A DNA stretch of 64,000 bases from Eledone cirrhosa (GCA_964016885.1 OZ024740.1:68138001-68202000); one strand, 5' to 3'; counted from the stretch's first letter, positions 1,554 to 63,641 are shown. Notes: generated by a model from the sequence alone, not told the origin. A program made the numbers and translations.

Positions 1554-1596
1554 ACGTTGCTGACGATAGCTAATAGGCTTGAAACTAGTACTGCGT
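1554..1596 (+). ncRNA. Minimal type I hammerhead ribozyme, family R
   Basis: acgttg-CTGACGA-t-agct-aata-ggct-t-GAAA-ctag-TA-ctgcgt; one stem I mismatch. Confidence 0.75.
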
Positions 1597-1984
1597 TCCT
1601 TTTTCAGTGTTGAATAAATGAGCAACGATGGTTGCTAGACACTGTACGGCTTAATTCGGGATGTTTGTTTACAAACACACCGAGCATTATAATAAATGTT
1701 TGGTGAATCCATACGTACAGATATATATATATATGTATGTATGTAACTATATACATACCAATGTACGTCTGTATACATATATGTATGTTCGTATACATAC
1801 TTATATTTAAGTAACGGCCGTACTAAGAGTGAGAAATGAAATTTCGTTTCGTTTTTTTCCGTGTATCGTTTTCGGTGCGCTCGGCCGATTAACTCACTCG
1901 ATATGGAAATGAGGCTGCTCGGCCGTTAATATGCATAAGGAAATTATATACTTTCAGAAGTTCAATCATCTGGCAGGAAGGTAT

Positions 1985-2027
1985 ACGTTGCTGACGATAG
2001 CTAATAAGCTTGAAACTAGTACAGCGT
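1985..2027 (+). ncRNA. Minimal type I hammerhead ribozyme, family R (intact)
   Basis: acgttg/cagcgt stem I, CTGACGA core, agct/agct stem II, GAAA, palindromic ACTAGT stem III, GUA triplet. Confidence 0.88.
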
Positions 2028-2282
2028 TCCTATTTTAGTGTTGAACAAATGAGCAACGATGGTTGCTAGACACTGTACGGCTTAATTCGGGATGTTTGTT
2101 TACAAACACACCGAGCATTATAATAAATGTTTGCTGAATCCATACGTACATATATATATATGTGTGCATGTATGTATATATATTTACATACTACTGTACG
2201 TCTGTATATGTATGTACGTATACATACTTATATTTATGTCTATATATATATATATATATATATATATATATATATATATATA

Positions 2283-3028
2283 AACATTCGCTCTACATGG
2301 TTGAATACAATAAAAGTAATCTTAATTTTTCGAATATTAACAATAACATTCGATTCGTTTCCAATTATGCAAACAAGCTTCATTTTTATAGCCATGTCAG
2401 TAGAATGAACAACTTCATTCTTGCTCTTGTATTGGCATGTAAACAGAACTGCAGACACTAATGTTTCTGGGTATCACCCTTCACCAGTACAGCTGACTGT
2501 TCACCTGCCAATCTATCAGAGCTAGTGAAAATAAATGCTATTTTCTAATATATACAGTGACTGATCTGCCTGATTTGCATATTAACAAACTGGCTGATCA
2601 ATCTGATCTGCATATTAGCAGAGCCACAAATCAGGCAGATTTGCATATCAACAGATCGGGTAGTCAGTTTCCTGTATACGAGCGGTAAATTGCCGGCTTT
2701 GCCACATTTAAATTTAAAAACAAAATGTTCGTTCTACACGGCTTTCATGCCAAGACAAGAAGTTATTCATTCCACTGACATGGCTTTAGAAATGAGGCTT
2801 GTTTGCATAATTGCAAACGAATCGAATGTTATTATTAATATTTGAAAAACTCAGATTAAATGTATTGTATTCAGCCATATAGAGCAGCATTTGTTTTTTT
2901 TATATTTGAATGTGGCAAAGCAGGCCATTTATCGTTCGTATACAGGAAACGGACTGGCCAGTCTGCTGATATGCAAATCTGGCTGATCAGTGGATCTGCT
3001 AATATGCAGATCTGACTGATCAGCCAGT
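2283..3028. mobile_element. Inverted pair of a ~440-bp HHR-bearing unit, bordered by (TA)n on the left and TA/CA-rich repeats on the right
   Basis: 2745-3025 is the reverse complement of 2555-2745 plus 2283-2440; the left arm is slightly more than one permuted unit. Confidence 0.75.
2449..2492 (-). ncRNA. Hammerhead-like fold with one core substitution
   Basis: Minus strand: ctgta-CTGGTGA-a-gggt-gat-accc-a-GAAA-cattagtg-TC-tgcag; stems I-III all pair; GUC triplet. Confidence 0.7.
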
Positions 3029-59664: not shown

Positions 59665-61390
59665 CAATTTCGACGTTACAATGGGTTCGAGTGATTTGGC
59701 CCAGGTAACTGATCTTGTTGGGCTGTTCCTCCTAAATGAACTGTATGTTACCTTTCCGCACCTTAAAGGTGGACTTTATTGTGACGATGCATTGTTTGTG
59801 ATAAACTCTAGCACCAACAATATTGAGCATAATAGGAAGAAACTTTATAAATGTTTTTTAAGTTTTAACCTTTCGATCACGATTGATAGAAATGATAGAG
59901 CGGTCAACTTTTTAGATGTGACTTTGGACTTGGTCACTAATAGTTATAAACCCTTCCATAAGCCAAATGAAATACTCTCTTATGTTAATCCCAGTTCTAA
60001 CCACCCCAAATCTATGACTAGCTCTATAATTAACGGTGTATCTAATAGAATTTCCACACTCTCTAAGGATATAGGAATATTGAATTCACATGCAGAGTAC
60101 TATAATAATGCCCTAGCTAACTCTGGTTACTCTGGTAAAATACGTTATAATGAGAACAACCTTAGAAAGTCTCCGTTTACCCATAATAATAATAACGTAA
60201 TTTCCCATAATATGGCCATGAATGGGAGTAGAAAGCATAGGAATCGTAGAAATCCCATAGGTGTATCCGAACCCATCCATAGGTTAAGCTACCGTAATCG
60301 TAATAGTGAGTCTAATGGTACACTTTTCGGGATTAGTTCTAGGGAACAAGATAGGCACTCTGATCGCTCACCCAGTGGTTGTTTTTACTAATTCTAATAG
60401 TTTTGTTTCAACTGATCCTGGTAGTAACCCTAATCCTATTGATATGATTCCAGATAACAGTAGATATACTAAAGGTAGAAACAGAAGGAGACTCAATGGG
60501 GTTTTGGCTGCTTCTAATAATGTTGTTTCAACTAGTCCTCGCAGTAACCCTGATCCTATTAATGGGATACTGGATAACGGTAGAGTTCGTAAGGATAGAA
60601 ATAGGAGGAGACTCAATACTTATTTTAACCCGCCTTATGATCATGAAGTGTTAACTAACATCCCTAGGTCTTTCTTTTCTATCTTAGAGAAACATTTCCC
60701 TCCTTCTAATAAATACCATGGTGTTTTTAATAAAAATGTAATTAAACTATCATTCTCTACCACCCCTAATATTAGTTCTCATTTAGCTAGCACTAACAAT
60801 AAGAAAATTAGGGACAGCTACTCCTCTTTGCGTACTACTAATCTTGATAGATCCATTAATGCCTTACCACCTGAGCAGACCTTATCTTATAATAACCCTA
60901 GAAATGATGCATCACTTATTCAGCCGGTAAATAGCACCAGGAAGTGTAACTGTAGAGTAAGTATTAACTGCCCTTTAAATGGTCACTGCCTCTCTAGGAA
61001 CATTGTTTATGCTTGTGAAGTTAAGACTGATTCTTCTAATAGCACGTATATAGGTTGCACATCAAATACTTTTAAAACTACGTTTATATCTCTAATTTTA
61101 AGCATGTTAAGTTTAAGAACTCTACTTCTTTAGCACACCATATCTGGGATCTTAAAGGGGCAGGCATGCCATATAGCCTTAATTGGCGTATAGTAGCACG
61201 CTCTAATAACCTATCAACACACACTAAATTCTGTAATCTCTGTATCCTAGAGACCCGCTCTATAATTTTCTCTAGGGAAGTTTTGCTTAATAGAAAGTCT
61301 GAGATATTTTCTTCCTGCCCCCATGCCATTTCTAATTCTTTCTTCTATTATAGACCTAAAAGTTCTGGTAGTTTAAATCGTATCCATTAG
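59665..61390 (+). pseudogene. PLE reverse transcriptase plus GIY-YIG endonuclease, frameshifted
   Basis: FDVTMGSSDLAQVTDLVGLFLL; GGLYCDDAL; NFLDVTL; SNHP; YYNNALANSGY; YFNPPY; CNCRVSINCPLNGHC; NIVYAC..TYIGCT; CNLCILE; LNRKSE..SCPH. Confidence 0.95.
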
Positions 61391-62860
61391 CTGCTATATT
61401 TCCTTATCTTTTTTGTTTAGGTTCATTTTGATTACCATCATCTTTATTATTATTGGTTTTCTGCGGCTTTTCGATTCTAGTTTCCATGGTCTTTTGGCTA
61501 CCATACCCTGTCTATCGTCTTGGGCATTATTATAGTTTCACTACTAACACCTTATGGGTTTATATCTTATTAAATACTTTGGTTGGTGTCTCATTCAACT
61601 AATGTACCTCCTCCTCTACACACTTAATATCCGCCCCTTCTATTATACTATATATAAATTTCACCTTTATGCTCCTTTTATGATATTATATAATATATGA
61701 ATTTACTTTTATGCTCCTTCCTATCCTCCATAACCTCTCCTCTTTCTGTTCCCATTGGTCTACCATAGTTCTATTTAGAGTCCTTTTATTTGATAACGTT
61801 ATTCGACTGAACGAAGCATATTTTTCTCTATTATTGATAATTTTTTTGAGATATCTTAAACTAATTTTGAAGTGACTAAATATGTATTTTAAATACTTTT
61901 AATATTAATTAATTTAAAAAGGTTTTCTAGTCAAATCTCTGGTCTACATTTCTATCTTTTTTCTTTTACTTAACCGCTTGTGACACCTAAGTAAATATAC
62001 TTGTTTTTGTTTTTCGATCTTCGGTTTATTTTATTTATTATTTTACTACCACACGCTGTTTGTCTGACCATGTAGTTTCATTAATATATGTCTGTATGTC
62101 AACCACGTAAATATATTTTGTAATATTTTGTGATATTTTGGTAATATTTATGCCAATGTATAATGACTTGACCTCCGTGTATTTGTTACAATGGTATAGA
62201 TATTTTTTCAACACAATTTTTTCAACACTATTTAGTTCTATATGATTTTTTCTTACCCTGTGTAAAACTTTATACTATTTGTTAACCTTGAATTATATGT
62301 ATGATGTAATTTTGTATATCTTTGATGCCAATATATTATAATATTGTTATTATAATGTTATTATAATGTTTCTATATTGTTTATGCACACTGACAGGGAA
62401 TTATATATTATATTTTATTTTTATTTTATCTTTATTCTTATTTTTATCTTTATTATATTATACTGTAAACAATATATATATATATATTTAAATACTTAAT
62501 AAGTGTTAGTTTGTATTTGTACTAATGTGTATATCTATTGAGATATATATATATATACATATATTAAGCTTTTTATTATTACCATCTATTATATTATATT
62601 ATATTCTATATCGTACTGTAATTCTCGCATTATACTACCATTTGTGTTTCAAATTTTTACATTATATAATATTTGGAATGTGGGTTCTACATGTTAATCA
62701 CTTCCTTGCTATTTGGTCCATATCTATGTTTGTAACTGCTCACTCTTAATCTTAGCCAACTTTTCCTTAATATCTTTCCTAAGCTTCAATAGATGTATAC
62801 TCCATATTCTTCTGAGTGTTTGGCTTGTATTGGCCGATAGTGCTTCTTGTAGCTTTACTT

Positions 62861-62898
62861 GCCCTGATGAGTCCTTAATAGGACGAAAGATTGTTGGC
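62861..62898 (+). ncRNA. Minimal type I hammerhead in the PLE 3' terminal repeat
   Basis: gcc-CTGATGA-gtcc-ttaata-ggac-GAAA-gattg-TT-ggc; stem III imperfect. Confidence 0.82.
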
Positions 62899-63061
62899 TA
62901 ATAAAGACTTTTGATGTATTGAAGGATTCTTTGGTTTATTTTTTTATAATTCTTCGGCTATATCTTATACTGTCATTTCTATAATATGAAGAGGGTGTTT
63001 AACTCCAACACACTCTAGTATTTTAATTCTTATATATATATATATATATATATATATATAT

Positions 63062-63641
63062 GTTTTCGAGGCTTTTGATATGGAATCGTGTGTCAAAAGA
63101 AATATTTTTATACTTGGGGAGGGTCATATTGTTGTAATAATTGTTACTACTTTTGGCACAAGGCCAGCAATTACACAGTGCATTACTGGTACTTTATTTT
63201 ATCGACCCCGTAAGGATGAAAGGCAAAGTTAACCTCGGCAGAATTTGAACTCAGAATGGCATAATATTGCCAGAAATAATAACAGAACACACTCACTGTT
63301 TGGTTGGTTTCCACTTCTGTATCTTTTATATCTCCAAAGTTAATTCATTTTGTCTTCAATGTTTAACATTGACCGATCAACGGGGTCAAAAATATATATA
63401 TAAACACATATATATATATAGTCTTACAAAGTTCTTTCGTTGCACATATGCAATATCATCAATGGTACTATTATGTTCCTCCTGTTGTATTGTATATCTA
63501 CGGCATTTTTATTTGAGGACCAAATGAATTAACCGTGGAGATATAAAATATACAGAAGTGAAAACCAACCAAACAGTGAGTGTGTCTGTTATTATTTCTG
63601 GCAATATTATTACAACAATATGACCCTCCCCAAGTATAACA
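63062..63641. mobile_element. Family H inverted composite with a nested SINE
   Basis: 63110-63350 (minus the SINE) is inverted at ~63512-63640; homologous to 43110-43443. Confidence 0.8.
63137..63260 (-). mobile_element. 5'-truncated SINE inserted in family H
   Basis: Interrupts gttgtaataat|attgccag, which is uninterrupted in the opposite arm; short ataat duplication. Confidence 0.85.

Follow-up and report, generated by a model that had tools for sequence, protein, structure and literature searches.

Minimal hammerhead ribozymes of many families, probably carried by Penelope-like elements, in a 64-kb stretch of the Eledone cirrhosa genome

The stretch of DNA examined here, 64,000 nt of Eledone cirrhosa (GCA_964016885.1, OZ024740.1:68138001-68202000), belongs to a 3.0-Gb assembly and is referred to throughout as the window. 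It is AT-rich, dense in microsatellites, and populated by hammerhead ribozyme (HHR) motifs, several of which lie downstream of remnants of Penelope-like element (PLE) coding sequence. A first-pass annotation of the window had proposed about 15 unrelated HHR-bearing families and about 30 motifs. We describe the motifs, the elements that probably carry them, and their abundance in the genome as a whole.

Results

Mapping family references back to the window recovered 40 HHR-region copies in 16 families (19 core-intact, 14 mutated, and 7 partial), so that the proposed numbers were, if anything, an undercount; "core-intact" here tolerates any base at position 4 and a U3-A8 pair. Shuffled sequence mapped in the same way gave 0 to 1 hits per shuffle (five shuffles, window and sample). 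Every one of the 16 sites originally listed falls on a repeat family with a hammerhead-type core in its copies: the window copy is intact at 11 (R, 16105, A, 24087, C, B, 29445, H, 44802, F, and 62861) and mutated at 4 (2449, D, 49582, and 51424), and 47730, described at the outset as a half motif, is indeed half-present. The copies and the associated coding remnants are as follows.

1390..2236, plus strand: family R, two tandem ~431-nt noncoding units with cores at 1560 and 1991, U10.1-U11.1, stem III ACUAGU
2412..2517, minus strand: family 2449 HHR region, core mutated (CUGGUGA; family CUGAUGA)
8456..8563, plus strand: family F, partial copy
9781..9869, minus strand: family R HHR, intact core
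16079..16181, plus strand: family 16105 HHR, a textbook minimal motif with extra A, G10.1-C11.1, and stem III ACGU
17852..18542, plus strand: PLE reverse transcriptase (RT) thumb/GIY-YIG endonuclease remnant, upstream of the family A HHR
18832..18910, plus strand: family A HHR, intact core, 2-bp stem II, stem III ACAAUUGU
19850..19971, minus strand: family D, inverted 5'-truncated copy, mutated core
20165..21101, plus strand: PLE RT/GIY-YIG remnant of the D element (Pfam GIY-YIG E=0.0017, below the curated cutoff)
22438..22560, plus strand: family D HHR, mutated core, long stem II
22772..22803, minus strand: family 24087 inverted partner, mutated core
24060..24161, plus strand: family 24087 HHR, intact core, 2-bp stem I only
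24476..25763, minus strand: family C 517-nt noncoding unit, partial tandem plus inverted truncated copy, weak stems
within 24476..25763, minus strand: family C HHR-like cores at 24828 (intact) and ~25346 (mutated)
26031..26145, minus strand: family B inverted copy
26171..27633, plus strand: PLE RT-endonuclease remnant of family B
28694..28792, plus strand: family B HHR, core CAGAAGA (A in place of U at position 4, or U4A), U10.1-U11.1, 4-bp hairpin stem III
29393..29548, both strands: family 29445, two HHR regions as an inverted pair, stem III of the hairpin type
31767..31923, both strands: family B, two half copies, inverted relative to each other
35341..35429, plus strand: family R HHR, intact core
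42891..43099, plus strand: PLE endonuclease fragment beside family H
43202..43273, plus strand: family H HHR, 6-bp stem II, weak stem I
44073..44724, both strands: family B inverted pair (44121 minus, mutated; 44660 plus, intact)
44780..44865, minus strand: family 44802 HHR, U3-A8 core (UUGAAAA), stem III ACCGGU
45542..46944, both strands: family R, three HHRs (45578 minus, 46117 plus, 46891 plus)
47122..47231, minus strand: family D copy, mutated core
47639..47773, both strands: family 47730, two half HHRs ending inside stem II, inverted
47961..48351, both strands: family F, intact minus-strand HHR with long stem II and stem III ACUAAUUAGU, and a partial inverted partner
48463..48532, minus strand: family D partial copy
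49553..49664, plus strand: family 49582, degenerate, with U3-A8 core, mutated G12, and 2-bp stem I
50915..51552, both strands: family 51424 inverted pair, both cores mutated at G5
59437..59594, both strands: family A inverted pair, both cores intact
59597..61357, plus strand: PLE RT-endonuclease open reading frame (ORF) remnant, frameshifted, family 62861
62834..62940, plus strand: family 62861 HHR, canonical core, 5-bp stem II, extended stem I
63396..63493, minus strand: family H copy, mutated core

Two structural descriptors gave concordant counts. At a score of ≥20, the first found 9 motifs in the window against a mean of 0.15 in 20 block-wise dinucleotide shuffles; the second, at a score of ≥18, also found 9, against 0.12 in 100 shuffles. 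Descriptor 2 requires a type I fold and an exact core in which position 4 is free and U3-A8 is permitted, and it accepts mismatched bases at 10.1-11.1; an earlier descriptor that barred this mismatch missed most motifs. Because descriptor 2 had been tuned on hits already observed, it was frozen and applied anew to 40 stretches held out from a genomic sample (79 evenly spaced 10-kb stretches and these 40, 119 in all, 1.19 Mb), where it returned 73 hits in 400 kb against 0.2 after shuffling. The excess over composition-matched shuffles is thus 75- to 365-fold in the window and hold-out, and the controls held almost no motifs, at no density like that of the window. This excess, together with the fixed strand and position of the motifs relative to element ends and the covariation described below, already refutes for the whole set the explanation by chance resemblance within repeats rich in AT and palindromes, to which we assign a negligible probability. 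What speaks for chance is that Rfam recovers no HHR, either at the gathering threshold in the window, among the best 150 of the 317 window matches at E≤10, or with the best single motif as the query, and that any one of the weakly stemmed motifs C, 24087, H, and 49582 could be coincidental or dead. The top Rfam matches, to microRNA models, were microsatellite and inverted-repeat hairpins and were rejected.

The possibility that the window is a hotspot of intact motifs was likewise rejected, 9 being observed where the 119-stretch sample predicts 9.07 per 64 kb. Total copies were about 2-fold above the sample (40 per 64 kb versus 386 per 1.19 Mb), an excess that partly reflects library bias. Alignments spanning an HHR cover 16,185 of the 58,666 nonmicrosatellite bases of the window (28%, a lower bound), and repeat matches of any kind cover 50%. 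The earlier proposal that much of the apparently unique DNA consists of ribozyme-bearing retroelement ends was therefore overstated in extent, although the presence of such ends from many families is supported.

Across the 119 stretches, descriptor 2 yielded 169 hits in at least 26 clusters, with two arrays supplying 29 of them. In the whole genome, the pattern CTGANGA-N12-18-GAAA occurred 255,473 times (39,653 for the reversed-pattern control) and a long-stem class 79,309 times (108 for its control), and the exact motifs of families B and 44802 were found 17,572 and 11,539 times. The control-subtracted sum is ~324,000 core-intact motifs in 3.0 Gb, or about 1 per 9 kb, from patterns that check core letters rather than all stems and that exclude diverged B copies, diverged 44802 copies, and copies with a very long stem II. 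Sampling gave a higher estimate, 425,000 (confidence interval, 320-550k), which is probably ~30% too high; we prefer the direct count because the same canonical-core pattern gave 330k when extrapolated from the sample and 255k when counted genome-wide. With mutated and half copies included, the 386 copies in 1.19 Mb translate into about 1 per 3-4 kb once the ~30% inflation of the sample is considered. The very large genomic load anticipated by the first-pass annotation is thus borne out, whereas its figure of one motif per 2 kb holds only for a count that takes in relics and half copies.

The core CUGANGA / GAAA / UH of minimal PLE HHRs, or its U3-A8 covariant, is present in 15 of the 16 families, the exception being B, with A at position 4. 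A type I three-way junction with convincing stems can be drawn for 12 families. In 24087, H, and 49582, only 2 bp of stem I adjoin the core, and in C, stems II and III are weak and no full divergent homolog was found for comparison, only 3' halves being recovered. Stem III is a perfect palindrome in eight families (R, 16105, 24087, A, D, 44802, F, and 49582) and nearly so in three (2449, 51424, and 62861). All of the palindromes first quoted (ACGU, ACUAGU, ACCGGU, ACAAUUGU, and ACUAAUUAGU) are present, but stem III is of the hairpin type in B, 29445, 47730, and C and nonpalindromic in H. At the base of stem II, 16105, 24087, and H combine an extra nucleotide after A9 with G10.1-C11.1, and 44802 and 62861 have G10.1-C11.1 with no extra base. 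Families R, A, B, and 29445 have U10.1-U11.1, a published variant (PMC3088659), and F and 51424 have C-A. Cores degraded in the window are restored at the family level, as either a canonical or a family-fixed variant core, at 51424, D, 2449, and 47730; the 51424 family form has CUGAGGA, a long stem II, and a 7-bp stem I, and the full 47730 motif has a U3-A8 core. In the sample, 48 of 51 copies of 47730 are partial, mostly ending inside stem II and forming near-perfect inverted repeats, a pattern that suggests template switching at the ribozyme structure.

Despite unrelated stems, the core letters, including the C3-G8/U3-A8 swap, are kept in at least 26 families. In aligned copies of 20 families, N7 deviates from the commonest column base in 33 of 239 cells (13.8%), the 11 catalytic positions do so in 67 of 2,631 (2.5%), and the flanks do so in 405 of 7,346 (5.5%). 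The contrast between N7 and the catalytic positions indicates that cores were conserved in propagating lineages, and these alignments point to selection on the propagating parent elements rather than on scattered copies. The CpG at positions 7-8 of family R has become TG eight times and CA zero times. In stem II of family F, two pairs show double changes, 98.3% of cells are paired, and the covariation score was reached by 0 of 500 shuffles.

Five RT/endonuclease remnants were found in the window, all upstream of and on the same strand as an HHR. Complete elements were recovered elsewhere for two families. Locus L230 (family 62861) consists of an HHR (1665), a 963-amino-acid frame, and a second HHR (6408), with a spacing of 4,743 nt; in L247 (family B), an HHR (2338), a 713-amino-acid frame, and an HHR (5581) are spaced at 3,243 nt. 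Each frame is a single ORF encoding an RT plus, at the C terminus, a GIY-YIG endonuclease. YRDD and IVY..YIG motifs occur in both, as do RWR, a CxCX5C linker, and CxxC/CxH surrounding the E and N of the endonuclease; L230 has DKT and L247 has NKT. Published features of the Hydra clade include DKT, RW(R/K), the CxCX5C linker, CxxC plus CxH, and insertion at (TA)n (PMC8557442). The two frames are therefore likely to belong to that clade, a placement made by motifs, and motifs of this type are also legible in the window remnants. The window RT remnant has its best named homologs among proteins of Argonauta hians (49% and 44% identity). Three further families (A, D, and H) adjoin ORF remnants, and 13 of 29 B loci and 8 of 11 62861 loci lie near PLE coding sequence. 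Compared by blastn, the flanks in the 16 references show no meaningful similarity to one another, in keeping with their description as unrelated, but the L230 and L247 proteins are homologous (42-43% identical). The HHR families thus go back mostly to a single PLE radiation, not to separate origins.

The surroundings of the motifs also resemble PLE insertions. (TA)n occurs within 200 nt downstream of 88% of 426 copies, compared with 26% of 3,000 random points. A same-family partner in 5'-to-5' inverted orientation accompanies 23 of the 40 window copies, with none convergent, and 154 of the 386 sample copies, with 20 convergent. Families show two alternative 3' ends ~50-90 nt apart, and optional 3' tails of ~50-90 nt occur in B, F, 29445, 47730, C, and R. 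Partial tandems, inverted copies, and tails are the signatures of PLE insertion. Long near-perfect inverted repeats were also observed at 50088-50653, 17744-17960, 2290-3033, and 3405-3552; these are probably further PLE-type inverted insertions, and transcripts of them, if any, would form long double-stranded RNA.

Families R (~425-431 nt) and C (517 nt) consist of short noncoding units in tandem, each unit bearing a type I HHR; PLE coding matches no more than 1.5 kb away were seen at only 3 of 29 R loci and at none of the 12 C loci. Copies of C are very young (98-99% identical, many 99-100%) and show a partial tandem, an inverted copy, and a 65-nt tail, and their HHR-like motif is weakly stemmed. 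Both families appear, from their sequences, to be noncoding retrozyme-like derivatives. Longer arrays exist elsewhere: L179:1-10000 has 15 R motifs at a ~422-nt period, and L156:281-3381 has 11 motifs of another family at 310-311-nt spacing. A head-to-tail HHR array also occurs at G000:C1:1241766-1244278, and these arrays resemble nonlong-terminal-repeat (non-LTR) retrozymes or satellites. It could be proposed that much of the load consists of nonautonomous, circular-RNA retrozyme-type repeats rather than truncated autonomous PLEs, as the noncoding tandems of R and C and the arrays would suggest. Families B and 62861 are nonetheless autonomous, and R and C themselves show PLE-type inverted truncation and tails. 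We consider this account somewhat unlikely for much of the load; for a subset of the motifs, it is compatible with the PLE origin that we favor.

In family B, A4 is present in all 24 aligned copies, in both pseudo-long terminal repeats (pLTRs) of coding element L247, and in 17,572 exact copies in the genome, compared with 70 copies having U4. A parent subfamily with canonical U4 was not found, the five U4 loci listed being truncation or inversion junctions or point changes. Family 29445 has the architecture of B with a normal U4 and serves as the natural control.

Other repeats in the window lie outside these families. About 12 copies of a ~190-nt repeat resembling a short interspersed nuclear element carry no HHR (7273-7476, 15791-15999, 31199-31526, 32501-32664, 38304-38494, 39177-39376, 41824-42011, 49685-49867, 52336-52848, 55026-55149, and 63131-63261). 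A degraded, coding-looking stretch at 55600-57000 is unmatched by PLE queries and is possibly a DNA transposon remnant, and degenerate C/T-rich minisatellites occur at 3764-4819 (~76 nt), 7860-8210 (17-52 nt), and 12209-12852 (103-210 nt).

Discussion

The observations support, with a probability of about 0.88, a model in which the motifs represent minimal HHRs of type I, housed in the pLTRs of many PLE families, likely mostly of the Hydra clade, and in short noncoding derivatives, their density arising because reverse transcription likely starts just downstream, so that 5'-truncated insertions at (TA)n keep the motif. In this model, an element protein would nick (TA)n and prime reverse transcription at one of two sites just 3' of the ribozyme. 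Reverse transcription would frequently end early, and a second cDNA would be added in inverted orientation; the short ends thus left would nearly always bear the motif, giving one or two HHRs per insertion, hence the density. In active parents, the ribozyme would cleave a tandem precursor RNA, probably as a dimer through palindromic stem III or aided by protein, and the template for insertion would probably be mostly uncleaved RNA. Solo copies dispersed in the genome are probably passengers undergoing decay, and the majority of all copies are likely to be silent relics.

Several results weigh against this model. Complete elements were recovered for only 2 of the 16 families; neither the 963- nor the 713-amino-acid frame had a Pfam hit, and the same was true of three homologs, the sole Pfam match being the subthreshold GIY-YIG hit on the D remnant. 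The conservation analysis required alignment through the core, which favors conserved cores, and the copies share ancestry, which inflates P values, so that its results are patterns rather than strict probabilities. Monomer folding was unremarkable in five of six motifs (z, -0.79 to +0.82), with only 62861 folding notably (z=-2.42); this is expected of dimer-type motifs yet lends them no support. Finally, no peak of 5' truncation was seen at the predicted cut site, only 4 of 403 alignments starting within 2 nt of it (family D was dropped from this analysis as uninformative, and the E and R references are themselves truncated), and a genomic footprint of cleavage was therefore not found.

The lack of such a peak agrees with in vitro work in which uncleaved RNA served as the template. 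Together with the insertion in vitro of HHR mutants of an anole PLE (PMC11167929), it also suits an alternative in which the HHR fold is kept as a structural signal for protein binding, priming, or packaging, or is simply a passenger, with catalysis dispensable. The amplification of family B to thousands of identical U4A copies is what this alternative would lead one to expect. The catalytic letters, however, are held in at least 26 families while N7 drifts, as catalysis predicts, and we judge a purely structural or passenger role to be unlikely.

The motifs belong to a published class, the minimal HHRs of PLEs, and do not form a new system; what is gained is scale and one variant. Like those described by Cervera and De la Peña (2014, PMC4209133), they are type I with a minimal or palindromic helix III and occur as many heterogeneous families per genome, mostly as solo motifs of truncated PLEs. 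Opposite-strand pairs 100-700 bp apart, U3-A8, and a 2-bp helix I (Drosophila virilis) are shared as well. The class, its heterogeneity, U3-A8, U10.1-U11.1, and 2-bp stems have all been reported before. In contrast with that account, many families here lack the extra nucleotide and G10.1-C11.1, having U-U, C-A, or A-A instead; four have a hairpin stem III; and one has U4A. The resemblance to Hydra-clade endonuclease-bearing PLEs (Craig et al. 2021, PMC8557442) extends to RT and endonuclease motifs, HHRs, (TA)n, and partial tandems with an inverted 5'-truncated copy and an optional tail. The DKT of that clade is found in one of our two frames, and its members as described there are few, mostly cnidarian, and <3 kb, with tails of 30-40 nt, whereas the units here span 3.2-4.7 kb, are very abundant, and have tails of ~50-90 nt. 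Animal non-LTR retrozymes (Cervera and De la Peña 2020, PMC7229834) are short noncoding tandem type I HHR units, as are R, C, and the 310-nt array. The published retrozymes have canonical HHRs with loop 1-loop 2 contacts and were shown to give rise to circular RNAs; U-U at the base of stem II is known in an axolotl motif, and a PLE origin has been proposed (PMC7229834; Li et al., bioRxiv 10.64898/2026.07.22.740005).

With respect to load, published HHR counts include ~2,000 plus 1,300 in Schistosoma mansoni, 4,000 in coelacanth, and 9,000 in Xenopus (PMC4209133), compared with at least 324,000 here, under different descriptors. In Acropora, >6,000 in 16 families were counted with another descriptor. 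The axolotl genome is much larger than this one. Its retrozymes, at up to 120,000 copies by other descriptors, give the highest published count (PMC7229834; bioRxiv 10.64898/2026.07.22.740005). Among cephalopods, 235 Hammerhead_1 loci have been reported in giant squid (PMC6962438), and no mention of ribozymes was found in the main text of a repeat annotation published for octopus in 2026 (PMC13282606).

Our literature search found no report of such an HHR load in a cephalopod-like genome or of a U4A core. Lunse, Weinberg, and Breaker (2017) reportedly described small dimer-cleaving HHR variants with reduced stem III, associated with PLEs and numbering ~150,000 representatives across databases. 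That work and a supplement to PMC4209133 may each bear on the novelty of these findings.

A bolder reading, which we regard as possible though short of an even chance, is that this is the densest HHR load yet reported, at least 26 families arising from a Hydra-clade radiation that includes an autonomous U4A family with a true stem III, whose ribozyme would be either a new active core variant or a dead one at >17,000 identical copies. Antisense or intronic read-through could then yield genome-wide RNA cleavage. If true, the U4A family, active or dead, would be a natural test of whether PLEs need the ribozyme.

Annotation based on Rfam misses essentially all motifs of this kind (0 in the window). 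Hammerhead cleavage in PLEs is weak and is dispensable for insertion in vitro. The dozens of young and old families found here, in which the stems vary and the core is held, represent a ready natural mutagenesis series, and family B makes it directly testable whether amplified PLEs need catalysis.

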